Shown one piece after another: positions 1 to 11,189 of a DNA stretch of 11,823 bases; position 1 is the first letter of the stretch; each line of letters begins with the position of its first letter. Source of the DNA: Puniceicoccales bacterium (lineage in GTDB: Bacteria > Verrucomicrobiota > Verrucomicrobiia > Opitutales > JAIRLG01); contig JAITRB010000020.1 in the NCBI GenBank assembly GCA_031288595.1, forward strand, positions 1-11,823, read 5' to 3'. The notes beneath the pieces were generated by a model. It was not told the origin of the DNA and made no database searches. It saw only the letters and a list, made by a program, of their open reading frames with translations. The position numbers and the translations under genes are program-made.

Positions 1-332
1 CTCGATATTCGGGGCTCCCTTGTTAGGAAATTAGTCCTCGCCATCTGTAAACCGAGTAGGTCTCCCCAATACAAGGATATACCAGCAGCTTACCTTCCCC
101 AGTTCGAACTGATGGACTCCCGCGGTTCGACTGCTGCTCCATTCCCTTCCCCATCCCCAGTAGTCGCGGGACAAACGCAGCGCATCCTCGCATAGGCCTT
201 GCAGTCCTCAGGAGAAAGGAGCGCCTACTCCACCGGCGAAGGAGCGTCCAGCAGGCCTGAGAATCAAGGCTTCTCCAATATACACAGGGACGCTAAACGC
301 CACGCAAATGGCGGTACTCTGTCAAAAGTGAG

Positions 333-872
333 TCAATGTCCCAGGGCTATTGGGGGTATTTTCCCGCGTCGTTGGGAGAAAAAGCCGCGGAGAAGGGCAT
401 AGCAGTCTTCGGCGAGGATGCCGCAGCGGACCGAAGGGTGAGGGGGATTCGGGAGATTTCTCAGAGCTAGTCCCTGCGGGAGAGCGGCATTCGGGTCAAG
501 CGGCCGGTGCTCCGGAATACCGAAGATGATGGCATCGACCCGCGACAGGCGTGCCGCGGCGGCACACATCGGACAGGGTTCCTTGGTGCTGTAGAGCATG
601 CAGCCGTTCAGGCGCCAGCCACCCAGTGCCCGCGCGGCCTGGGACAGCACCAGCATCTCCGCGTGCGCCGTTGCCTCCTGCCTGGCCTCGATGCGGTTAT
701 GGGCGGCAGCGATGATCCGACGGTCATACACGACGACGGCCCCGACCGGTACCTCGTCCTCTTCCCAGGCGCGGATGCCTTCGTTATAGGCCATGGCCAT
801 GAAGAACGCATCGTCTTTCGGCTGCGGCGAGGGATATTTGCGGCCAAAAGGGCAGTTCAGGCGCATTCCCAT
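333..872 (-). CDS. tadA: tRNA-specific adenosine deaminase (TadA, CDA-fold zinc deaminase)
   Basis: 179-aa track ORF. It carries the deaminase zinc motifs H-A-E ('EATAHAEMLVL') and P-C-x-x-C ('KEPCPMCAAAARLS'), and its size is typical of TadA. The ATG at 872 has AAGGAG about 9 nt upstream on the minus strand (read from 873-890). An internal ATG at 800 is a possible alternative start. Confidence 0.88.
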   Translation of the reverse strand: MGMRLNCPFGRKYPSPQPKDDAFFMAMAYNEGIRAWEEDEVPVGAVVVYDRRIIAAAHNRIEARQEATAHAEMLVLSQAARALGGWRLNGCMLYSTKEPCPMCAAAARLSRVDAIIFGIPEHRPLDPNAALPQGLALRNLPNPPHPSVRCGILAEDCYALLRGFFSQRRGKIPPIALGH

Positions 873-1067
873 GAATGATGCTCCTTCCGCGAGCTCAGCG
901 CAAGGTTCTTTCCATTCAGGATGGAAAATTCCGCCGAAGCCAAGCGCGGGTCAGCGGAGTTCCAATCGTCCTCAATTTCCACTCGCCATGGGCGTACGCT
1001 GAAGGGAGCGGAGAACCGGCCCGTTTCCGGGAAATGGGTCAACCGGCATACTCTCGTCTGGGCTCGG

Positions 1068-1442
1068 CTACTGCTGGCAGCAGCGGATCCGCACGATGCG
1101 GCGGCACCCAGGCATCCGGTGCAGCTGTTCCAAGACTTCGGCCAAGCGCAGGCTCAGGGCGTGACGAGCGACGCTGTTCAGGACATCCACCAGCAGCACA
1201 TCGTCCCGAATGACCTTGCGAGGATGGCAGTACTGGGCCAGCGCGGGACCCACGATTTCCGGCCAGCGGCGCGCGATCCGCTCCTCCAGGCGCAGCAGTG
1301 CTTCTGGCAGATTTTTTTTCAGCCAGCGTTCCATGGTATCACCCATCGGCTTGGCCGCCAGATCTTTGCCCACATTGCCATTGGTCGGCAGACCGCGCAG
1401 AGCGGCGATCAGGTTCTCGACGCGGCGGGGGAAGCTCGCCAT
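1068..1442 (-). CDS. DUF721 / DciA-like protein
   Basis: 124-aa ORF. The segment 'RWPEIVGPALAQYCHPRKVIRDDVLLVDVLNSVARHALSLRLAEVLEQL' fits the DUF721 pattern as I recall it (W..IVG..A.H..P......L.V.V.....A..L). The ATG at 1440-1442 lies 3 nt after the stop (1446-1448) of the upstream gene, which suggests translational coupling. Confidence 0.65.
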   Translation of the reverse strand: MASFPRRVENLIAALRGLPTNGNVGKDLAAKPMGDTMERWLKKNLPEALLRLEERIARRWPEIVGPALAQYCHPRKVIRDDVLLVDVLNSVARHALSLRLAEVLEQLHRMPGCRRIVRIRCCQQ

Positions 1443-1445
1443 AGG

Positions 1446-4229
1446 CTAGAAATCGTAGGGGACCATTCCCTTCCGCAGGCCGGCCATCGCCGCATCCAGC
1501 GAGCCGAGGGAAATCGTTTCCTGGAAGGTATCGGCCAGAGGGGCCAGTTTCAGCCCATGTAGGGTCTTGAGACCGTATTCCCAGGCCCGCTGGTAGAGCG
1601 AGGACAATGCCGCCATATTGGGCCGGTCCAGATAGAGCTCTAGGGTCTGGGATTGGTCGATCCATCGCTGTCGCACAGCCGCTGCCTGAAGCAGGGATTC
1701 CGCATCGAGTTCGAAGGCCGTTCGGGCGACGGCCCGTACCGTTTCCGGCCAATCAGCCGAGAGCAGTGCCATGGACTGCCCACTGCAGAGCTTTTGGTAG
1801 AACTCCGCCGTCCAGACGCCCGCGCTGCGGAGATAGTGGACGAAGGCATGCTTGGGAAAGAGCTCCGGCTCTTCCCGATTTTCGGGAGAACTCGGCGGAT
1901 GCAGCTGCCACGTCGCCGGCAACATGCCGGGGGAACAGCCCATCAGTCGGGCGGCGGATTCGATCGCCGGAAGGGCCAGGAGATAGGCATGGCGCAGGCC
2001 ATAGTTCAGCAGGCGCTGACGCAGGGGCTCCCAGTCGAGCGAGGGCGTTCTCATCTCTCGATGCCTGTCCTCCTTCGCCGTTCCACCTGCCCGCAGCGTC
2101 CGGCTGTGACACTCCCAGGGAAATTTTCCCTGTGCCCAGAGCGAATGCCCAAAGCACGGGTAGCGACCCTTCTCCTGGGCCAGGTCGATGGAGACCTCAA
2201 TCACGTCGTAGGAAAAAACCTCCATGCATTCGTCCTGAAAGGCAAGAGAAGCGGGAGCGTCGAAGGCCAGTTGTTTTTGCCACAGCGCCTCCTGCAGGCC
2301 GACGAGTCCCAGGGCGATGGGCCGATAGCACAGCGTCAATGCCTCCGCGGCCGGAGAAGGATAGGGCTTGGCGTCGAGCATCGCGTCCAGCGCCCGTACA
2401 GCCAGGCGCACGCTCCGCCGCAGCTGGGCTCGATCGAGGGTGCCCTGCGCGTCCAGATGTCGCGGTAGGGAGAGAACGGCGATGGGACAGCCCAGCGAGG
2501 CCTCTGGCTCCGACCGCAGGAGCAGTTCCGAATCCACGCCGCTGCTGTGGAGCAAGCCCTCCGGCGCGAGCATGTGGTCCCCGTTACAGCGATCCTTGAA
2601 GGCGAGCCGCGGGATTCCATTTTCGTAGATACGGGCAAGGATCTTTCCCCAGAGAGCGGCTGCCGGCAGGCTTCGGCCCCAGCAGCGTCCCGCACGCGCC
2701 TCCTGCTCTTGAGCCTCGTAGGCACTTTCAAAGGCCTCGCCATACAGGGTCTGCAGCTGGCGCACCTCTTCCACACGAAACAGCATCCATTCCCCTTCGG
2801 CCTGCACCCGCTTCAGGAAGAGATCGGGAATCCAGAGCTCCGTGGCGAGGGAGGAACTCGTGGCCCGCGCCCCCGACTGCCGGAAGTCGATGAAGTCCTC
2901 GATGTCTGCATGCCACAGTTCTAGCGCAGCCTTGCCACAGAGCTTCGGGTTCTCGCCGATGGCCGGTCGGGCGAGGGCGAGCTGGTGCTGGTGCAGTTCC
3001 AGAAATGGCATCACCCCAGCACTGCGCTGCCGCGTGCCCCGAATCGGGCTGCCAGCTCCCCGCACCGATGTCCAGGAACCGCTCAGCGACGCGCCCCACT
3101 TGACCGCCAGCGCATTGTCCGCGATACCCTGGGCCATGATGCTCTCCAGGTCATCCCGCAATTGGTAGACATAGGCGGAAAGGAGATGGGCCTTCGGCGT
3201 ACCTGCGTAGCTCAGCACCGTAGGGGCGACACAGAAGCGCCGGTCTTTGAGCAACTCGTAGAGCTCGATCACCTGCTCCTCGTGAGGCGAGGAGTTCTCG
3301 TGTAAAAATATCCCCATCGCCACCCGCATCCACAGGAACTGCGGCAGTTCGTCGACCTCGCCGCTCTCCCAGTCTCTCAGGAGGAAGTTCTCCAGCAATT
3401 CCTGTGTTGCCAGGCCATCCCAGCGCTCGTCGGCCCCCACATCCAGCGCTTCGGCCAAACGTCTCAGGTCCCAATCCAGCATGCGGGAATGCAGAATGCC
3501 CCTCTCGACGGCCCGCTGGATATGGCGCGGAAATGCTTCCCGATAGGCCTGTTCCAGGAGCTCCGGAGCGGCCGGTTCCCAGGCCAGGAAGCGCGAGTAG
3601 AGGAAGCTCCAGCGGAAGCGCGCCGCGAAGAAGTCAAACTCAGGCGCGACGGCAACCAGGCCCCGTGCCCCTCGGTTCAAGTGGACTTCCAGATCCGACT
3701 GCTCGATCTCTCCCTCGAGCTGCTGGCCCAGGCGCTGGGCAATCTCCGTTGGCGAAAGGGAAAGATCGAGCCCACGGGAGGCAAAGGCGATCCGCGGCAG
3801 CAGCTCCCCGATCGTCCACAGATGACTCTGGCCATCCGATTCCTTCACCAGCAAAAAACTCTCCTGGGCCGACATTGCCGACTTTGCCTTCTGGCCGCGC
3901 AGCTGCGCGTGCTCAGAGCGGTAGAGGATATAGGCCTCGGCGACCTTAAAATGCCCGCGGCGCATCAGCTCCTCCTGGACCATGTCCTGCACGCGTTCCA
4001 GTGCGATGCTGGGAACGCCAAGGGCGATGACCCGACGGGTGACGGTCTGGGCGATCTCGCGCGCTGAGGGGAAGGATTCCTGGTGCTGGGCGGCAAAGGC
4101 CTCGCTCACGGCCTTTTCGATCCTCTTGGCATTCCAGGCGACCTCCTCACCATCGCGCCGGATGAAGCGCGGGGCCTGGGAATTTGGAGACCAATTGTGG
4201 ATATTACCGGGAATAGCAGCGTAACTCAT
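1446..4229 (-). CDS. Ribonucleotide reductase large (alpha) subunit homolog, class I-like, with an N-terminal ATP-cone; catalytic residues substituted (probably non-catalytic)
   Basis: 927-aa ORF. ATP-cone: 'RFIRRDGEEVAWNAKRIEKAV...VQDMVQEELMRRGHFKVAEAYILYRSEHAQLR'. RNR alpha signature blocks: 'APTVLSYAGT', 'ELWHADIEDFIDFRQ', 'ELWIPDLFLKRVQAEGEWMLF', 'AFKDRCNG', 'YRPIALGLVGLQEAL', 'AWEYGLKTL'. ATG at 4227-4229. See findings for the active-site substitutions. Confidence 0.9.
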   Translation of the reverse strand: MSYAAIPGNIHNWSPNSQAPRFIRRDGEEVAWNAKRIEKAVSEAFAAQHQESFPSAREIAQTVTRRVIALGVPSIALERVQDMVQEELMRRGHFKVAEAYILYRSEHAQLRGQKAKSAMSAQESFLLVKESDGQSHLWTIGELLPRIAFASRGLDLSLSPTEIAQRLGQQLEGEIEQSDLEVHLNRGARGLVAVAPEFDFFAARFRWSFLYSRFLAWEPAAPELLEQAYREAFPRHIQRAVERGILHSRMLDWDLRRLAEALDVGADERWDGLATQELLENFLLRDWESGEVDELPQFLWMRVAMGIFLHENSSPHEEQVIELYELLKDRRFCVAPTVLSYAGTPKAHLLSAYVYQLRDDLESIMAQGIADNALAVKWGASLSGSWTSVRGAGSPIRGTRQRSAGVMPFLELHQHQLALARPAIGENPKLCGKAALELWHADIEDFIDFRQSGARATSSSLATELWIPDLFLKRVQAEGEWMLFRVEEVRQLQTLYGEAFESAYEAQEQEARAGRCWGRSLPAAALWGKILARIYENGIPRLAFKDRCNGDHMLAPEGLLHSSGVDSELLLRSEPEASLGCPIAVLSLPRHLDAQGTLDRAQLRRSVRLAVRALDAMLDAKPYPSPAAEALTLCYRPIALGLVGLQEALWQKQLAFDAPASLAFQDECMEVFSYDVIEVSIDLAQEKGRYPCFGHSLWAQGKFPWECHSRTLRAGGTAKEDRHREMRTPSLDWEPLRQRLLNYGLRHAYLLALPAIESAARLMGCSPGMLPATWQLHPPSSPENREEPELFPKHAFVHYLRSAGVWTAEFYQKLCSGQSMALLSADWPETVRAVARTAFELDAESLLQAAAVRQRWIDQSQTLELYLDRPNMAALSSLYQRAWEYGLKTLHGLKLAPLADTFQETISLGSLDAAMAGLRKGMVPYDF

Positions 4230-4485
4230 GGTGACTTGCGATATCCTTCATTAAATCACAAACCCCCAGAAAATTCAAGCTAAAACCATTGTGGAAGCCG
4301 TTTGTTCGGACGGAATCCACCCATCCAACCCTGCCCGAAGTAACTCGGTTCTGAGGGATGAAACCCCTCCATCGAGCGGAATATCCGCTCATCGGATTGG
4401 CGCTTTCGATCTCATGATCCCTCCGGAAGCCCCAGAGGAAACGCGCCGATCCGAGCCTCTCCTTCCCGCGTCGGTTCATCCTTCC

Positions 4486-4590
4486 CGCGCGATGGCCAGG
4501 CACAGCCCCCTTCTGGAAGAAGGGGGCTGTGCCTTGGGCGCCGGCGCTCCGCGCCAGCGCCGACTTTGCTCTGCAAAGGGCCATCGCGCG
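4486..4590. repeat. Cloverleaf-like composite palindromic intergenic element, copy A
   Basis: A 12-bp closing stem (CGCGCGATGGCC 4486-4497 / GGCCATCGCGCG 4579-4590) encloses three hairpins. Hairpin 1 is 4498-4534 (16-bp stem). Hairpin 2 is 4537-4561 (5+5 bp, C.A mismatch, TCC loop). Hairpin 3 is 4564-4578 (CTTTGC-tct-GCAAAG). It is related to the element at 7864-7984. Confidence 0.7.
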
Positions 4591-4623
4591 CGGCTCTAGA
4601 CCTCAGAAATTCCCAGGGTCCCT

Positions 4624-5436
4624 TCAGAGCTGAGTGCCCTCAGAGCGATGTTCAAGATCCTCATTCGGCCGAGGCGGAAGGGCCTGGGTCCCCTCCGACT
4701 GATAGTAATAGCCAACACCGTGCACCGTCCGGAGCTGATCCGTGGAACAGCCCTGCTGCTGGAAGAGCCGGCGAACGTGCATGATATACTGATCGAGAGA
4801 ACGACCTCTCGGGTTCGCAAAGCGTCCCCAAACGCCGCGGATCAGCTGACTTCGGGGCAATACGACGTTGGAATTATGCGACAGATAGGCTATGAGGCCG
4901 AAGATGCGTTTCCCGACGCACATGGGACCATCTGGGAACTGAAGCTCCATCTCCCCTGGTATGACCCGCACGCTGCAAAAGAAGAATTCGTCCTCGAGAA
5001 AGGACACACCCGAAGGCGCATCTTCCGATGCGCTCGTCGTCCGCCGGAGAACAGCATTCACTCGGGACAGAAGCTCAGCCAAACTGAAGGGCTTAGTCAG
5101 ATAGTCATCGCCGCCCATATCGAGGCTCTGCACCTTCGTCCGCTCATCTGTCTCTCCGGTCACGAAAATCGTCGGGACTGCAATTCTCTGCTCCTGCAGG
5201 CGCTTGAAGAGCAGCAGGCCGTTGCTATCGGGCAGGTTCAGGTCCAGCAGGAGGAGATGCGCACCGACCTTGGGCTGTTGGAAAAATTCCACTACTCCCC
5301 CGCCTTGGGAAAAGACCACGGCGCTCATGCCGATCAGCTCCAGCTGTTGCTTCACCACCCGAGCCAAAGGCGCATCATCCTCCACAATGACGACCTTCGG
5401 CTTGGCCAACAAACCCATAGACGATGAATGAGACAA
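4624..5436 (-). CDS. OmpR/PhoB-family response regulator (REC domain plus winged-helix DNA-binding domain)
   Basis: REC hallmarks: 'VVIVEDD', acceptor Asp in 'LLLLDLNLPD', 'IFVTGE', 'YLTKPF'. The C-terminal trans_reg_C-like segment ends in 'LRTVHGVGYYY'. The track start at 5436 is TTG, with AAGGGA 6-7 nt upstream. The ATG at 5418 ('MGLLAKPKVVIVEDD') is an alternative start. Confidence 0.85.
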   Translation of the reverse strand: MSHSSSMGLLAKPKVVIVEDDAPLARVVKQQLELIGMSAVVFSQGGGVVEFFQQPKVGAHLLLLDLNLPDSNGLLLFKRLQEQRIAVPTIFVTGETDERTKVQSLDMGGDDYLTKPFSLAELLSRVNAVLRRTTSASEDAPSGVSFLEDEFFFCSVRVIPGEMELQFPDGPMCVGKRIFGLIAYLSHNSNVVLPRSQLIRGVWGRFANPRGRSLDQYIMHVRRLFQQQGCSTDQLRTVHGVGYYYQSEGTQALPPRPNEDLEHRSEGTQL

Positions 5437-5520: not shown

Positions 5521-6162
5521 TTACAGCATTTTGACTTCCGGAGAGACACCCGAGCGGTGAATCGCCGGTACGAGCCAGGAGGCCATGCCGGCCGCACTGG
5601 CCGCCTGAATGCCGAAAGAACTGTCCTCCAGCACCAGGCAGTGCCCGGGAAAAACCCCCAGTCTTTCCGCCGCCAGCAGAAAGAGATCCGGTGCCGGCTT
5701 TGTGTGCGCCACCTCTTCGCAGGTGACGATGACCGGGAAATAAGACTTGAGTTTCGTCCCTTCCAGGGATTGGTGGACGAATTCCCGATAACCGCCGGAG
5801 GCCACCGCCAGAGGCTTAGCGATCTTCCGACACTGTTCGGCGAACTGGACGACTGGCCGTACCGCCACAACATCCCCGATGTGCGCGGAGATGAAGTCCC
5901 GCTGGTAGCGCAGCAGAGTCTCCTCGTCGATCGATTCTCCAGTGCTGGCACAAATTTCGTCCAAGGTCACTTCCGTCCGCTGCCCCCCTCGTTCGCAGAA
6001 ATAATCCCAGCGGAATTCGTACTTCGCCCCGTAGCGCTTCAGGGAATCGAGCCAGGCGTGGTAGAATAGTGGCATTGTGTCGACCAGAGTTCCGTCACAG
6101 TCGAAGATGATGGCGTCGAACCCAGAGGGATCGGGAAAGACCATCACAGGAAATTCAGACAC
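5521..6162 (-). CDS. HAD-superfamily hydrolase, subfamily IA (phosphatase / beta-phosphoglucomutase-like)
   Basis: HAD motif I 'IIFDCDGTLVDT', motif II 'AVASGG', motif III Lys in 'HTKPAPDLF', motif IV 'LVLEDSSFGIQAA'. The track start at 6162 is GTG. The ATG at 6144 is an alternative start. Confidence 0.85.
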   Translation of the reverse strand: MSEFPVMVFPDPSGFDAIIFDCDGTLVDTMPLFYHAWLDSLKRYGAKYEFRWDYFCERGGQRTEVTLDEICASTGESIDEETLLRYQRDFISAHIGDVVAVRPVVQFAEQCRKIAKPLAVASGGYREFVHQSLEGTKLKSYFPVIVTCEEVAHTKPAPDLFLLAAERLGVFPGHCLVLEDSSFGIQAASAAGMASWLVPAIHRSGVSPEVKML

Positions 6163-6267: not shown

Positions 6268-7785
6268 CTAGGTATCCGTTTCGCCTGCCACGGCCCTCGC
6301 CTGCTCGACTCGCACGCTCAGCTTCTTGACCGAAAAGAGCCAGAAGCCACAGACCAGGACGAAGATCAGAAAGGAATAGGGGGCGATGAGGAAGTAGGAG
6401 GCATTGGGCACCAACACCAGCAGTGCGGCCTGAATCCAGGCCCCTCCGGCTTTGCCCAGGCGGCCACCGACCACATCGACCACCGCCTTGCCCTTCACCT
6501 TCATCTCCTCGTTCAGCGGGATATAGGCCATCTCCTTCGTCAGGTCGAAGAGCGCGTACTTCGTCGACTTGCAGATGATCAGGATCACCGTACCCAGGAT
6601 GACGGCGGCGAAGAGCGGCGTCAGGCCGATCGTACCCAAAACAGGGGCCAGGCTTTCGCGGAAGAGCACGAAGATGAAGAACAAGCTGCCGAGCAGAAGG
6701 ATGATCGCGGGCGTGATGGCCGCCGCGATCAACCAGCGGAACAGGCGCAAGACATTTCCCCCCACGATCATCATGATCATCGAGACGACTCCCGTCCAAA
6801 AGGTATACCAGCTCATATAGGTATTGAACGCATTGGGACTGCCGCAGTGCATGCCCACTTGCTTCTTCCAAAGAACCTCAATGAGATTGACACTGGTGCC
6901 GTAGCAGATGATCAGGGATGCGATGAACAGCAGGTACGGAGAGGTGAAGATCGTCATCAGGCTCTGCAAAAACGGCGTTTTCTTTTTCTTCTTCGACACC
7001 CCAGGAAGCTCGGGCTTGTCGTAGAAGCGCTTATCAGTCAGGATATGGCGATAGATCCAGCGATAAATCAGCATGGTTGCAACGCCGGACAGGACAACGA
7101 AGCCCATCAGCCAGTGGAGCGAGACCTGCCAACGATCGACTCCTGGGCTCTCGGGGATGTTGGAAAATCTTTCCCCGAACCAGCCGGAGAACAGCAGGGC
7201 CAGCTGAGCCACCAGGCCGAAAAAGGCATAAACCCGTTTCGACTCCGAGGTTTTGGTCACCTGGTTGGCGAACTGCCAGAAGGAAAGGGAGAGGATCGCG
7301 CTTCCCCATATCTCGGCGAGGATGTAAAAAAGCGCATACGACCAGATACCGACGATGGCCAATGGCCACTTGAGAAAACCAGGAGCGGCGGCCTGCCAGG
7401 CCCGAACGGTCTCCTGAGCCGGATGCAGGAGGTCCAGATGGGGATAGATCAGGAAGGCGAAGGCGCCGAAGAAGATGATGAAGGGCGAGAGCGTGGCATA
7501 GAACAGATGCTCATTGCTCAGGAGATCGCTCGCCTTCGTGTAGAGCAGCATGAAGATGATGGCTGACGGCATGACGCAGAAGCCCTTCAGGAAAGGGATC
7601 ACCTCCGCATCGGAACCCGGGCCGGTCACCACCAGGGCATCCTTGATGTTCCGCAGACAGGAGTAGTTGAAGAGGATGAAGAAGAAGATCAGGCTCATGG
7701 GGATGACCTTTTTCAGCTCATAGGTGTGGAGCGGAAAGAACATCCTGCGCCACCTGCCGAATTGCGATGCTGCTACTTCTGTCAT
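6268..7785 (-). CDS. tlc: ADP/ATP (nucleotide) translocase, TLC/NTT family
   Basis: 505-aa polytopic membrane protein. The N-terminus 'FGRWRRMFFPLHTYELKKVIPMSLIFFFILFNYSCLRNIKDALVVTG' matches the conserved start of Chlamydia/Rickettsia Npt/Tlc transporters as I recall them. Many hydrophobic segments and a 'KKKKK' loop are present. ATG at 7783-7785. Confidence 0.88.
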   Translation of the reverse strand: MTEVAASQFGRWRRMFFPLHTYELKKVIPMSLIFFFILFNYSCLRNIKDALVVTGPGSDAEVIPFLKGFCVMPSAIIFMLLYTKASDLLSNEHLFYATLSPFIIFFGAFAFLIYPHLDLLHPAQETVRAWQAAAPGFLKWPLAIVGIWSYALFYILAEIWGSAILSLSFWQFANQVTKTSESKRVYAFFGLVAQLALLFSGWFGERFSNIPESPGVDRWQVSLHWLMGFVVLSGVATMLIYRWIYRHILTDKRFYDKPELPGVSKKKKKTPFLQSLMTIFTSPYLLFIASLIICYGTSVNLIEVLWKKQVGMHCGSPNAFNTYMSWYTFWTGVVSMIMMIVGGNVLRLFRWLIAAAITPAIILLLGSLFFIFVLFRESLAPVLGTIGLTPLFAAVILGTVILIICKSTKYALFDLTKEMAYIPLNEEMKVKGKAVVDVVGGRLGKAGGAWIQAALLVLVPNASYFLIAPYSFLIFVLVCGFWLFSVKKLSVRVEQARAVAGETDT

Positions 7786-8139: not shown

Positions 8140-8931
8140 TCAAGCCCCGTCGCACGGATAGAAGGGCAAGAGCTTCGTCCCGAAAATGCCATGGGCCCGA
8201 AGAAATGCATCTCGGCTCTCCGGGGATAGCTTTCCCCACTGCTTTTGGAGCGAAGGAGGCAGCAGAACCACATGAATGGCCAGCCATTGGGGCTCATCTG
8301 CCAGGTTCAGATCTCCCTCCGCCCAGGCCCGCCAGGAGAAGAATTCGGGAAAATCCCCATACCGGAGGAGATTGCCAGCCGATGACAGATCGCCCTCGGC
8401 GGCATACTGGATCCGCCAGGAGACGATCCGGTCGGCGAAGAGGGTCTCTGGCAAAATGCCCGGCGTCGCCGCCGGCCCAGGAAACATCTTGCGGAACGAG
8501 GGATAGACCTTGCTGCCCAGGCTGAAGGAATCGCAGAGTGCCATTGACTCCTCCGAATGCCTCGACAACCCGGAACGGTACACGGCCTGACTCCCGGGAA
8601 AAGCTTCCTCTCGGGCCCACAGGACATAGGCCATCTGTCCGCTCTCGTTCCGGCTGGACAGGATCAGGTGCGTACCGCTGCCCAAGATTTGGAGATCTCC
8701 CTCGACACGATCGAGGCGGCAGGCAAGGCGAGCCCAATCCTCCTGGATTCTCCAGAAGAGGCGTTCTTTTTCCTCCACCAGCCGCAGCTTCTCCTGAAGC
8801 CGGGACCATCGGCCAGCCATGCGGGCCCAGGGAGGCAGGACAAGGACAACAAGTATGAGCAGGAGGGTACTCACCATCAGCAGTTCCAGAAGCGAAAACC
8901 CTTCCTGGGGTCTATGTTTCAAGGAAAACAT
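8140..8931 (-). CDS. Prepilin-type N-terminal cleavage/methylation domain protein (pseudopilin-like, type II secretion / type IV pilus family)
   Basis: 263-aa ORF. The N-terminus 'HRPQEGFSLLELLMVSTLLLILVVLVL' gives the G|F-S-L-x-E motif followed by a hydrophobic helix. I do not recognise the rest of the protein. ATG at 8929-8931. Confidence 0.7.
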   Translation of the reverse strand: MFSLKHRPQEGFSLLELLMVSTLLLILVVLVLPPWARMAGRWSRLQEKLRLVEEKERLFWRIQEDWARLACRLDRVEGDLQILGSGTHLILSSRNESGQMAYVLWAREEAFPGSQAVYRSGLSRHSEESMALCDSFSLGSKVYPSFRKMFPGPAATPGILPETLFADRIVSWRIQYAAEGDLSSAGNLLRYGDFPEFFSWRAWAEGDLNLADEPQWLAIHVVLLPPSLQKQWGKLSPESRDAFLRAHGIFGTKLLPFYPCDGA

Positions 8932-9132: not shown

Positions 9133-10188
9133 CTATAGCTCCTCTAGAGCCTCATCGGAGTCCGAGAAGTTCGGGAAAATCTCCTCATCGGAGGATGAGC
9201 TTTCTTGAAATTCAAGCGAAGAACTGGATTCCGATTTGCCCTCTTTTTTACCCGATGCTCCTTTATCACTTCCCGATTCCTTCAGGGCCGTCTGGAGAGC
9301 CTCCAGGTCGAACTTCGGCTTCGGTGCGTTTTTGCAATCGATCAGTTCCACTTCGAAGCACAGCAGCGAGCCCGCCGGAATCTTCGGCAAATCATGATCT
9401 CCATAGCCCAGGTCGGACGGGATCCACAGCTTCACGACTCCGCCCTTGGCCACCAGTGGCACTCCTTCGCTGAAACCAGGGATCACATCCCCCAGCAGGA
9501 AGGAAGCCGGATCTCGCCCCTTGGAGCTGTCGAACACCGTCCCATCGATGAGTGCTCCGCTGTAGTGGATCGTTACCTCGTGCTCCAGGCCTGGGTGCTC
9601 CCCTTCGCCCGCCTTGACGATCTTGTAGCGCAGGCCACTATCCGTCTTTTTGACCATCGGATCTTTGTCCAGGTTTTTGAGAAAATCCTCCGCCTTTTTC
9701 TTGTTTTCCGCTGCTGTTCTTTTCATCTCCTCTTCTCGAATCTTGGCCTGGGCCTCGGCCTTTTGGCGGAAGTATGGCATCGCCTCCCTCATCGCCTCTT
9801 CCTCTACTTCGCCCCCCTCGGCAACCCCTTCCAGTACGCACTTAATGCACTCCGGGGACAGCCCCAGCTCCTCAAGTCCCGCCTGTTTTCGAAGCATCCG
9901 ACCCAGGGTCCTGCAGTATCGGCATTCCTCTTCCTTCGTGAAAACCTTGGGCTTTGGAGCTTCCTGCTCGCCGTCAGAAGGGACCTCTGGCTTCACCGCA
10001 GCGGGCTTCGGAGCCTCGGAAGCCGGTGATGCTTTCGGCTTGTCGGCGCTTGCTTCCTGTGGCTTCACCGTTGAGATATGGGCGCTCGATGGCGTTACGA
10101 CCCCATGCTTCTTGCCCGGCCCAGCGGCGGCCAGAACAACACTCGTCCCACAGCACAGGGAGATCAAAACAACCCATTTCTTTTCCAT
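9133..10188 (-). CDS. mip: FKBP-type peptidyl-prolyl cis-trans isomerase, Mip-like, with signal peptide
   Basis: 351 aa. The hydrophobic N-terminus is 'MEKKWVVLISLCCGTSVVLAAAG'. The FKBP domain is 'VTIHYSGALIDGTVFDSS...FLLGDVIPGFSEGVPLV..GGVVKLWIPSDLGYG...IPAGSLLCFEVELID'. A helical FKBP_N-like region lies upstream of it. The ATG at 10186-10188 has AAGGA about 9 nt upstream. Confidence 0.9.
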   Translation of the reverse strand: MEKKWVVLISLCCGTSVVLAAAGPGKKHGVVTPSSAHISTVKPQEASADKPKASPASEAPKPAAVKPEVPSDGEQEAPKPKVFTKEEECRYCRTLGRMLRKQAGLEELGLSPECIKCVLEGVAEGGEVEEEAMREAMPYFRQKAEAQAKIREEEMKRTAAENKKKAEDFLKNLDKDPMVKKTDSGLRYKIVKAGEGEHPGLEHEVTIHYSGALIDGTVFDSSKGRDPASFLLGDVIPGFSEGVPLVAKGGVVKLWIPSDLGYGDHDLPKIPAGSLLCFEVELIDCKNAPKPKFDLEALQTALKESGSDKGASGKKEGKSESSSSLEFQESSSSDEEIFPNFSDSDEALEEL

Positions 10189-10528: not shown

Positions 10529-11014
10529 CTATAAATCCCGCACCGGCGCAGGATCTGCAGGGACCAGAGGAATGTCCGATATCGTCGAGGTTTCTGATCC
10601 CCGATCAGGTCCTCCCATCGCACCGACAGATCCCCCTATTCCTTGGCTAATTGCCCCCGAAACGCGTCGTCCCACGGCAATGCCCAGTTCTCTCACGCCC
10701 CCAGTCACTGCAGCAGCATCTCTGAGGGCATTCTTAAGCGCCTCCGCTAGGGTCCGCAGGATGGGAGAAAAAACCTTCTCCCTGAGCCAAGTCAAGGCCG
10801 ACTTAAGTGTATCTAAAAACTTCTGAGCTGCTGTTGTCTTCACCTCTCCTGTGACTCCCGCTGCACCGGCCTGTACCGCTGAAGAAGCTTCTCCCATCTG
10901 CCCAGCCAATCGAGAATTCTCTCCTCCACTCGCAACTTCGCCAGGATTCTCAGGAATGCCCTCATCCCAGCTCGTTCTGGAAACCGATATCCCGTCTCCC
11001 ACTCTATCTCCCAT
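10529..11014 (-). CDS. Hypothetical protein (161 aa; disordered acidic/Gly N-terminus, amphipathic central helix, glycine-zipper-like C-terminal segment)
   Basis: The ATG at 11012-11014 has a strong SD (minus strand 'agaGGAGGgtgttggtATG'). The segment 'GRRVSGAISQGIGGSVGAMGG' has a small-xxx-small/GxxxG pattern. No family was recognised. Confidence 0.6.
   Translation of the reverse strand: MGDRVGDGISVSRTSWDEGIPENPGEVASGGENSRLAGQMGEASSAVQAGAAGVTGEVKTTAAQKFLDTLKSALTWLREKVFSPILRTLAEALKNALRDAAAVTGGVRELGIAVGRRVSGAISQGIGGSVGAMGGPDRGSETSTISDIPLVPADPAPVRDL

Positions 11015-11111: not shown

Positions 11112-11189
<78 letters not shown>

Follow-up and report, generated by a model that had tools for sequence, protein, structure and literature searches.

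What would a bacterium keep the alpha subunit of a class I ribonucleotide reductase (RNR) for, once the residues needed for catalysis appear to be gone from it? Textbooks present RNR as essential, and the presence of its alpha subunit is usually taken to mark dNTP synthesis reliably. The question is raised by an 11,823-nt stretch of DNA from a Puniceicoccales bacterium (contig JAITRB010000020.1; hereafter the window), in which one uninterrupted ORF of 927 amino acids occupies positions 1446..4229 (−), with its stop codon at 1446–1448. The encoded protein is identical to NCBI MDR3143865.1 and is labelled 'ribonucleoside-diphosphate reductase subunit alpha' by both NCBI and JGI. An earlier note, made from the letters alone, had read it as a full-length class I alpha homolog with a preserved ATP-cone but without catalytic residues; for brevity we call the gene, and relatives with such losses, dead nrdA.

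The ORF listing, HMMER and Pfam agree with the first part of that reading. All three expected domains were found, namely an ATP-cone (residues 23–108; 3906..4163 (−); PF03477, 62 bits against a cutoff of 25.8), the RNR all-alpha domain (residues 278–346; 3192..3398 (−); PF00317, 44.5 bits) and the ten-stranded barrel (residues 351–890; 1560..3179 (−); PF02867, 315 bits). The barrel scores 617–663 bits in canonical relatives, and the Pfam scores are asymmetric: dead ATP-cones reach 62–66 bits versus 74 in a canonical relative, while dead barrels reach 315–380 versus 632. At the family level, the window protein falls below the cutoff of the best equivalog, NF005544 (548 versus 965 bits), and barely exceeds that of the generic TIGR02506 NrdE_NrdA model (360.9 versus 341.05). 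NCBIfam also holds a bacterial family, NF005401 (PRK06948), labelled only as a 'ribonucleotide reductase-like protein'; the window protein lies outside it, since its 52.9 bits fall far short of the 906-bit cutoff and the match covers residues 362–695 only. The AlphaFold2 model (pLDDT 79, pTM 0.78; moderate confidence, pLDDT ~55, over residues 351–430) superposes in Foldseek on the class I alpha structures 5im3, 6aui and 8vhp with TM 0.81–0.89.

The closest known architecture is that of class Ia NrdA with tandem ATP-cones, as in Pseudomonas aeruginosa (5im3) and Verrucomicrobia, which has the same domain order and fold (HMMER E 3e-132 and TM 0.81 to 5im3). In the alignment to P. aeruginosa NrdA, the window cone pairs with the N-terminal, dATP-binding cone (5im3 residues 33–135). 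Behind it lies a second cone-like region (approximately residues 124–216; 3582..3860 (−)) that aligns to 5im3 residues 136–237 and is modelled as a hairpin plus helices, but in which Pfam finds no ATP-cone match. This again resembles P. aeruginosa NrdA, where only the N-terminal cone is functional (bioRxiv 10.1101/2022.04.23.489257) and a degenerate second cone follows. The N-terminal extension of about 130 residues found in Verrucomicrobial NrdA is absent from the window protein.

The catalytic columns were located in a MAFFT alignment of the window protein with 98 canonical relatives, and in HMMER alignments to 5im3 and human R1. Across the seven columns corresponding to E. coli C225, N437, C439, E441, C462, Y730 and Y731, the MAFFT alignment gives CNCECYY in the canonical relatives and AGDECHG in the window protein. 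The HMMER alignments tell the same story: 'qlsscyl' is replaced by 'hllsayv', 'hssnlcteitl' by 'hssgvdselll', 'vcnlgs' by 'gcpiav' and 'glkttyylr' by 'glktlhglk'. The redox Cys (C225; human C218) has become Ala352 (3174..3176 (−)), and this column holds Ala or Thr in the six orthologs described below and Ser in a sister clade. In the former finger loop and adjacent strand (residues 558–585; 2475..2558 (−)), Gly564 (codon 2538–2540) occupies the N437 column and Asp566 (codon 2532–2534) that of the thiyl-radical Cys439, a position occupied by D, E, G or S in the orthologs. Glu568 and Cys581, in the E441 and C462 columns, are kept. The Tyr-Tyr radical-transfer dyad (Y730/Y731) is replaced by His891-Gly892 (1554..1559 (−)), and by H followed by G or A in the orthologs. 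Each of these substitutions and retentions had been read by eye in the earlier note, and the alignments together with recomputed codons place them in the same columns.

A shifted by-eye alignment, or chance, was considered and rejected. HMMER and MAFFT concur, and among 160 further loci obtained by pattern scans of genomes and metagenomes, all 143 complete NrdA genes read CNCECYY; the matches listed were only canonical NrdA, and the scan patterns, although taken from the clade alignment, were generic, so that the scans carry no information on absence.

The C-terminal tail (residues 898–927; 1449..1538 (−)) differs as well. The last Cys of the protein is C815, as claimed from the letters and recovered on recomputation, and the shuttle Cys pair is absent; the tail ends in ...YDF in all orthologs versus ...CEACQ in canonical relatives. 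It is modelled with pLDDT < 50, retains a fraction of 0.19 of the canonical-invariant columns and has a dN/dS of 0.2–0.3. Mimicry of the alpha-docking C-terminus of NrdB was tried as an explanation of the YDF ending and is unsupported, because Verrucomicrobial NrdB ends in VDDDEL. Judged by the alignments and the predicted structure, the window protein, unlike class Ia NrdA, has none of the residues for radical chemistry, redox chemistry and radical transfer other than E441 and C462, and no shuttle Cys, and the fold and ATP-cone are intact: the barrel is kept and its active site dismantled.

The erosion is selective. The ATP-cone is the best-preserved part of the protein, with 89% of canonical-invariant columns retained (89–97% across dead NrdA), the RRDG hairpin and the VQDxVQEELM...AEAYILYR helices among them. 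The second nucleotide site is also largely preserved, from Asp359 via Lys377 and Arg390 to loop 1 (residues 384–412; 2994..3155 (−)). D359, K377, R390, I396, G398, T399, G405, P408, F409 and L410 do not vary in any canonical or dead relative, and retention is 0.73 for the specificity-site helix and 0.71 for loop 1. Asp359 aligns to human D226, and from this alignment and the human and yeast R1 structures we take the D359, K377, R390 and loop 1 columns to be the specificity site, whose residues are thus kept as in P. aeruginosa NrdA. Such retention is not universal, because loop-1 residues are unconserved in several other dead NrdA lineages. Loop 2, which in active enzymes relays specificity to the catalytic site, is eroded (residues 413–435; 2925..2993 (−); retention 0.28); canonical NQGG..R.G has become RPAIGENPKLCG, and pLDDT is < 50 at residues 421–430. 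The same holds for the finger-loop region (residues 545–590, retention 0.38) and for the former substrate-phosphate loop (residues 752–775; 1905..1976 (−)), where canonical APTATISNIMGTSPCIEP has become PAIESAARLMGCSPGMLP and retention over residues 746–775 is 0.24. In all, retention is 89% in the ATP-cone and approximately 72% in the specificity site versus 24–38% in the catalytic-site elements.

Six orthologs (tier 1; 57–100% identity) share the catalytic losses and the gene neighbourhood, which consists of TLC, HAD, response regulator, dead gene, DciA and TadA. The ORF is intact in six lineages despite saturated synonymous sites. Where dS can be estimated, dN/dS of dead nrdA is 0.09–0.19 (0.36 in the closest pair); it is below 0.31 in every domain and lowest, at 0.02–0.12, over residues 351–470, the region that holds the specificity site. 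The housekeeping neighbours have similar values (0.07–0.35). Dead nrdA is under purifying selection and not decaying, as the earlier note had argued from the open frame and the canonical ATP-cone.

The surroundings of the gene are those of a bacterial chromosome, with a tRNA-Glu gene, dciA and tadA. dciA, of a helicase-loader family (1068..1442 (−); PF05258), starts 3 nt past the dead nrdA stop codon, so the two are probably co-transcribed. The gap is 3–5 nt in the window and in loci L001, L002, L008 and L009, and 149–172 nt in L003 and L007. We considered whether nrdA followed by dciA is a general ancestral order, and rejected this: one canonical locus has it versus none of 62 others by tblastn. 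As evidence of orthology the position is therefore weak; the case for orthology comes mainly from phylogeny and shared derived residues. The nucleotide importer reported nearby is a TLC transporter (6268–7785; PF03219, 565 bits). Rfam finds only a tRNA in the window and no riboswitch upstream of dead nrdA; a promoter and terminator scan of 300–4700 gave nothing above shuffled expectation; and no NrdR boxes were found in the window or upstream of the tier-1 nrdD in L011, the positive control, canonical locus L006, being equally uninformative.

How, then, does the organism make dNTPs? Canonical loci nearly always place nrdB directly upstream of nrdA (68 of 70). Unlike these, the window has no nrdB, as the earlier note had observed, and neither does any other tier-1 locus read. 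A wider NrdB search returned, among the matches listed, mostly conserved canonical NrdBs, a search in which a divergent NrdB could be missed; the sole 'Puniceicoccales MAG' NrdB among them, MDR2981754, has no nearby accession of a dead-NrdA MAG. An intact class III NrdD does appear to be present in the same organisms, on separate contigs. Accession numbers of NrdD and dead NrdA are 207, 252 and 274 apart in three tier-1 genomes, two of these pairs come from the same JGI sample, GC3 matches, and NrdD dS (0.33–0.59) matches that of dead NrdA, with the NrdD loci being syntenic. This NrdD has the glycyl-radical motif RVVGYLRPV and a dN/dS of 0.115. Since it is attributed to the same MAGs, the organism would not be an RNR-less one living on imported nucleotides only. 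In the NrdDs of this Puniceicoccales lineage, a deletion of 15 residues has taken away the 'IRKRDGRxVxF' hairpin from the ATP-cone, and Pfam no longer detects the cone, whereas other Opitutales and Verrucomicrobia NrdDs keep it.

The sister clade (16 clusters), approximately 40% identical, has lost C225, Y731 and the tail and has kept C439. Tier 1 and the sister clade together have 22 members, and none of them departs from E441 or C462, which could point to residual chemistry.

On balance, we think that dead NrdA is probably a selection-maintained pseudoenzyme that still binds nucleotides and acts as a sensor, regulator or scaffold for some partner. A nucleotide-binding regulatory or scaffolding role is the most likely one because selection maintains the gene and both nucleotide-sensing sites are preserved. 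The earlier note had proposed (d)ATP sensing or scaffolding, a proposal that gains weight from both allosteric sites having been selectively kept. The history may have been as follows. A class Ia NrdA of Verrucomicrobia would have descended vertically into an anaerobic Puniceicoccales group carrying a nucleotide transporter, where its oxygen-dependent partner NrdB was presumably lost, along with the radical-transfer Tyr, the thiyl-radical Cys, one redox Cys and the C-terminal shuttle Cys. dNTPs would be made by the class III NrdD encoded elsewhere in the genome. The protein, no longer an enzyme, would have kept under purifying selection its fold, the N-terminal ATP-cone (ATP/dATP site) and the dNTP specificity-site residues at the dimer interface, while the substrate site, loop 2 and finger loop were dismantled. 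Going by the retained parts, it may still bind ATP/dATP and dNTPs, dimerise or oligomerise upon binding, and pass the status of the nucleotide pool to a partner or serve as a scaffold.

Other explanations have to be weighed against this one. That the gene is a functionless relic, either recently inactivated or open only for the translation of dciA, would fit the tight dciA coupling and the missing catalytic residues. We hold it to be highly improbable: dN/dS is 0.1–0.2 over the whole length, as in the housekeeping neighbours, the frame has stayed open past synonymous saturation, the sister clade shows the same losses, and the need for an open frame alone would not conserve the amino-acid sequence. 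It is barely conceivable that the protein still reduces ribonucleotides, drawing its radical from an unusual source or working by an unusual mechanism. It keeps the fold, E441 and C462, and C439 is present in the sister clade, but in tier 1 the thiyl-radical column holds no Cys, C225, the Tyr dyad, the tail Cys and nrdB are missing, and the substrate-phosphate loop and loop 2 are eroded. The neighbouring gene suggests a replisome-associated scaffold, linked to the helicase loader DciA via the tight operon, with dciA starting 3–5 nt past the stop codon in four of six lineages (five of seven contigs read) and one canonical, Coraliomargarita-type locus also having nrdA followed by dciA. Adjacency alone is no proof of interaction, dciA does not adjoin the sister-clade gene, and with the 62 canonical loci lacking this order we regard such a role as very unlikely.

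Two further possibilities were weighed. The barrel could have been repurposed for a new ligand or for non-radical chemistry, with Glu568, Cys581 and clade-specific invariants forming a new site. Besides the invariance of E441 and C462, this would account for the shared fixed changes N341Y, N400R, ND414-415QH, G426E, H635Y, N749Y and Y773T (window numbering), for C765, and for an invariant Arg-Lys that replaces the Ala-Thr pair of the phosphate loop in the sister clade. Within tier 1, however, conservation is lowest in the elements of the old active site, and the residue at C439 changes freely; the model gives low pLDDT for loop 2 and the finger loop, and other dead NrdA lineages do not keep E441 or C462, and we find a new site quite unlikely. 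The dead NrdA could instead be a trans-acting allosteric subunit of class III NrdD, supplying the ATP/dATP on-off switch that the NrdD cone has lost. The deletion of the NrdD hairpin and the well-kept cone of dead NrdA speak for this; moreover, in L005 the sister-clade gene follows nrdD on the same strand at a distance of 155 bp, and in L010 the two share one contig. Against it, the correlation between cone deletion and dead NrdA amounts to a single phylogenetic event, nrdD and dead nrdA are unlinked in tier-1 genomes, a stem-loop followed by a T-run separates the two genes in L005, and the longest contig is listed at the same length, 91,604 bp, for a cone-deleted NrdD (P0130) and a canonical NrdA (P0081). 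We also know of no interaction between class I and class III enzymes, and consider this subunit role unlikely. If it were true, it would mean regulatory cross-talk between two RNR classes; the broader proposition, equally tentative and also unlikely, is that ATP-cone-bearing dead NrdAs are recurrent, unrecognised bacterial sensors of the nucleotide pool, acting here as an in-trans dATP/ATP switch for a cone-crippled class III reductase.

Known systems can be set beside our preferred reading, a pseudoenzyme maintained as a nucleotide-binding regulator or scaffold. The literature search found no bacterial counterpart, in line with the earlier note, and only betaherpesvirus R1 homologs are described there. 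MCMV M45/vIRA and HCMV UL45 are described as having lost catalysis and kept a non-enzymatic role, acting via host cell-death and NF-kB signalling, with a RHIM motif in M45 (PMC5469499, PMC12845177). The window protein is likewise an R1 homolog without catalytic residues, but it is bacterial, keeps its ATP-cone and would have arisen independently from bacterial NrdA; a RHIM-like motif ([IV]Q[IVLC]G) occurs neither in it nor in any ortholog. A second comparison is NrdR, which is small and binds DNA through a zinc-ribbon domain. Unlike NrdR, the window protein keeps a whole 800-residue reductase body, and it has no conserved CxxC motif. As an ATP-cone transcriptional repressor of nrd genes, NrdR is an example of a cone outside an active reductase, and by analogy the window cone would be a nucleotide-sensing module that drives oligomerisation (PMC9110341). 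The ATP-cone and the specificity site, which make up the allosteric apparatus of RNR, appear valuable apart from catalysis, and the protein may offer a natural 'regulatory-only' RNR for studies of nucleotide sensing. In practical terms, reconstructing the metabolism of these symbiont-like anaerobes will lead to the wrong conclusion that they have an aerobic RNR.

Lastly, the window clade does not stand by itself. An exhaustive search brought up 13 further dead NrdA lineages, all with an ATP-cone above the Pfam cutoff. The dead NrdA of the window is part of an old clade and of a recurrent phenomenon rather than a one-off, and together with the sister clade these lineages suggest repeated conversion of NrdA into a pseudoenzyme, which in the literature searched is described only for betaherpesviruses. 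One sister-clade protein, P0018, has an accession number only 320 from that of the window protein and was considered as a paralog in the same genome; GC3 (0.57–0.65 against 0.66–0.80) and a separate NrdD, 71% identical, indicate two genomes.

The window protein is encoded by a single uninterrupted frame at 1446..4229 on the minus strand (ORF listing), and its 927-residue sequence matches NCBI MDR3143865.1 exactly. That entry belongs to a 'Puniceicoccales bacterium' MAG (Verrucomicrobiota), and the source annotation labels the protein an ordinary RNR alpha subunit. Pfam recovers the full class I alpha architecture, namely an ATP-cone (residues 23-108, 62 bits), an all-alpha domain (residues 278-346) and a barrel (residues 351-890, 315 bits). 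By HMMER, P. aeruginosa NrdA (5im3, E 3e-132) is the nearest among solved structures, with human and yeast R1 next, and superposition of an AlphaFold2 model (pLDDT 79.4, pTM 0.78) on class I alpha structures gave a matching fold, with target-normalised TM-scores of 0.81-0.89. The catalytic columns are nevertheless substituted. In residue-level HMMER alignments to 5im3 and human R1, QLSSCYL is replaced by HLLSAYV, HSSNLCTEITL by HSSGVDSELLL, VCNLGS by GCPIAV and GLKTTYYLR by GLKTLHGLK. We also aligned the window protein with its 119 best database relatives using MAFFT, and found that the columns of E. coli C225, N437, C439, E441, C462, Y730 and Y731 read CNCECYY in the 98 canonical proteins among them and AGDECHG in the window protein. 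A further 160 NrdA loci, taken from collections of genomes and metagenomes, likewise showed the canonical pattern in every complete gene, and therefore the loss in the window is real and exceptional, not an alignment artefact. The earlier note had described, by eye, a full-length RNR alpha homolog that kept a canonical ATP-cone and had lost its catalytic residues; this observation is confirmed, since the HMM alignments exclude a shifted alignment by placing the substitutions in the catalytic columns themselves. Its codon positions, the retained E568 and C581, and the lack of any Cys after residue 815 were all exact upon recomputation.

We sorted the relatives into three tiers. Tier 1, the window protein and its dead orthologs, comprises six clusters at 90% identity (57-100% identity, 916-975 aa), in which C225 is replaced by A or T, N437 by G or S, C439 by D, E, G or S, and the Tyr-Tyr dyad by H followed by G or A, while E441 and C462 persist. 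Every tier-1 protein has Y-D-F at its C-terminus (window 1449-1457), preceded by a conserved SLDxAMxxL helix; a likeness of this tail to the Verrucomicrobial NrdB terminus was considered and rejected, as NrdB ends in VDDDEL. The orthologs P0002 and P0003 (L003, L007) carry insertions of 29 and 48 residues (…RKPLLDREALRMDGMAPEGG…) at a low-confidence surface loop, a variable region in an otherwise constrained protein, around window residues 712-723 (nt about 2061-2096). Tier 2, a sister clade of 16 clusters (P0007-P0021, P0023; loci L004, L005 and L010), shows 37-41% identity and lengths of about 1030-1060 aa, and several of its clusters are likewise named Puniceicoccales. Its members keep C439, E441 and C462, have Ser at C225 and Asp or Glu at Y731, lack the tail cysteines, and have an invariant Arg-Lys in place of the Ala-Thr pair of the phosphate loop; they may be dead or may be doing something else. 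Tier 3 consists of canonical enzymes with a C-terminal CEACQ.

Neighbour-joining trees recovered tier 1, tier 2 and the two combined each as a clade in all of 100 bootstraps. Because the branches are long, we give more weight to the derived residues that are fixed in and common to both tiers, which in window numbering are N341Y, N400R, N414Q, D415H, V420A, G426E, P553M, H635Y, N749Y, Y773T and R894K. On the parsimonious history, the losses came in two steps: C225, the shuttle cysteines and the Tyr dyad went once, in a common ancestor, and tier 1 was later stripped of C439 and N437, of the substrate-binding Gly-Gly, of loop 2 and the phosphate loop, and of the N-terminal extension.

The tier-1 ORFs are intact throughout, and the pairwise dN/dS values (NG86) are mostly 0.09-0.19: 0.17 for P0001-P0002 (dS 0.41), 0.19 for P0001-P0003 (dS 0.43), 0.11 for P0005-P0006 (dS 0.64), P0004-P0005 (dS 2.23) and P0004-P0006 (dS 2.45), and 0.09 for P0001-P0004 (dS 3.45). 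The closest pair, P0002-P0003, gave 0.36 at a dS of 0.18, and the eight remaining pairs were saturated at synonymous sites. Values stayed below 0.31 in each domain and were lowest, at 0.02-0.12, in residues 351-470; neighbouring genes ranged from 0.07 to 0.35. Low dN/dS together with intact ORFs argues against a decaying pseudogene, as the earlier note had also held, and against a frame kept open merely for downstream translation. We are highly confident that the window protein is a pseudoenzyme under selection.

What selection has preserved was scored as retention over the 374 columns whose conservation in canonical relatives reaches 97% or more. The ATP-cone retained 0.89 of these columns in tier 1 and 0.97 in tier 2, the specificity-site helix 0.73 and 0.69, and loop 1 0.71 and 0.74. 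Retention was lower in loop 2 (0.28 and 0.58), the finger loop (0.38 and 0.58), the substrate-phosphate loop (0.24 and 0.39) and the C-terminal tail (0.19 and 0.17). Aligned to human R1, D226 (=D359), K243 (=K377) and R256 (=R390) are invariant in all tiers, as are the loop 1 residues I396, G398, T399, G405 and P408-L410, whereas S202, G246-G247, Q288 and R293 (human numbering) are replaced; following the structural literature on R1, we assign these columns to either the specificity or the catalytic site. The Pfam scores follow the same trend, with 62-66 bits for the tier-1 cone against 74 in a canonical relative and 315-380 for the barrel against 632. Taken together, retention and scores indicate that both allosteric nucleotide sites survive in a protein whose catalytic site has been taken apart. 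In P. aeruginosa NrdA, the counterpart of the retained cone by alignment is the N-terminal one, which reportedly functions and brings about dATP-dependent tetramerisation (bioRxiv 10.1101/2022.04.23.489257; PMC5794259). A reasonably probable role for dead NrdA, judged from the retained residues, would be that of a nucleotide-binding regulator or scaffold using its ATP-cone and specificity site, and the interpretation in the earlier note, a non-catalytic role, is supported.

In canonical loci nrdB lies directly upstream of nrdA (68 of 70); none was present in any tier-1 or tier-2 locus read, in agreement with its reported absence beside the window gene. A class III reductase, NrdD, adjoins the tier-2 gene in L005 and shares its contig in L010, and in three tier-1 MAGs its NCBI accessions are 207, 252 and 274 numbers away from dead NrdA, with the same JGI sample behind one such pair. 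Gene order is shared between the NrdD contigs L011 and L012, which differ by a dS of 0.33-0.59, like the window and L003, and the GC3 of L011 (0.66-0.76) matches that of the window (0.66-0.80) and differs from that of tier-2 L010 (0.57-0.65). The accessions of the window protein and of tier-2 P0018 (MDR3144185) are only 320 apart, but two paralogs in one bin were rejected, as GC3 and the separate NrdD point to two genomes deposited consecutively. The full-length NrdDs of the tier-1 lineage contain the glycyl-radical motif RVVGYLRPV, and their dN/dS is 0.115. We infer an anaerobic lineage that obtains its dNTPs from class III RNR. One tier-2 genome has two NrdR-box-like palindromes, atgCTATATATtgtac and TCACTATATATAGTAT, spaced 32 bp apart and immediately upstream of its nrdD (L005:7600-7647); none was found in the window.

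A 15-residue deletion in the NrdDs of this lineage (L011:6435-8579, L012:6360-8477, L005:7695-9845) removes the 'IRKRDGRxVxF' hairpin of the N-terminal ATP-cone, which Pfam no longer detects in them, while other Opitutales and Verrucomicrobia NrdDs retain the hairpin. An intact cone in dead NrdA coincides with a crippled cone in the live reductase, and the former might supply allosteric on-off control to the latter in trans. However, this is a correlation in a single lineage, and it might be contradicted by NrdD P0130 and canonical NrdA P0081, which both list a 91,604-bp contig; we therefore rank trans control as a sub-hypothesis, and an unlikely one.

Although an NrdA by descent and fold, the window protein departs from the functional hallmarks of that family in lacking the radical Cys, redox pair, Tyr dyad, tail cysteines and NrdB partner and in falling below the equivalog cutoff. 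NrdR provides a precedent for an ATP-cone acting purely as a sensor, but its zinc ribbon is absent here. The betaherpesvirus proteins M45 and UL45 were the sole inactive R1 homologs found in our literature search, which returned no bacterial dead NrdA (not proof of absence); they are, however, viral and act on host signalling, and the window protein has no RHIM-like motif. We searched 1.84 billion representative proteins exhaustively with an HMM profile of tiers 1 and 2 and obtained 13 more full-length NrdA homologs with degenerate catalytic columns (P0369, P0371, P0373-P0375, P0387, P0389, P0394, P0399, P0403, P0410, P0412, P0436), with patterns such as SGWDSRE, ADLDVGP, SSFESGR and TSGDAS-. 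In all 13 the ATP-cone passes the Pfam cutoff (42-133 bits) and the D226-equivalent Asp is kept, though not all of them retain loop 1; their barrels score 288-534 bits versus 617-663 in canonical proteins. In a neighbour-joining tree they form at least two assemblages beside different canonical subgroups, which implies repeated origins.

Lastly, the order TLC transporter, HAD hydrolase (5521-6162), OmpR-type response regulator (4624-5436), dead gene and dciA is common to the window, L001, L003 and L008, followed by a tadA-like deaminase in all but L003, whose contig ends before it. L007, whose contig breaks off within the TLC gene, has the same neighbourhood from that TLC fragment onward, and the short contigs L002 and L009 hold the downstream part only. 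The nearby nucleotide importer that the earlier note reported is a TLC-family ATP/ADP-type transporter (6268-7785, minus, 565 bits), which is under tighter constraint than any other gene in the block (dN/dS 0.08). Between the response-regulator gene and dead nrdA, a perfect GC-rich hairpin, ggcacagccccct tcttccaga agggggctgtgcc (4498-4532), may be a terminator, in which case dead nrdA would have its own transcript; a consensus terminator scan did not call it because it has no T-run. The window also encodes a pseudopilin-like protein that bears a methylation motif at its N-terminus (8140-8931, minus) and a Mip-like FKBP isomerase whose acidic tail is rich in Ser and Glu (9133-10188, minus). Together with a CesT-type type III secretion chaperone in tier 2 (L004:6110-6613), the TLC transporter and the isomerase may point to a host-associated lifestyle, and this chaperone and a tier-2 PPi-dependent PEPCK (L005:13888-17280) hint at one that is both host-associated and anaerobic. 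Further along are a 161-aa ORF without a Pfam match (10529-11014, minus) and a tRNA-Glu(TTC) gene (11112-11189, minus).
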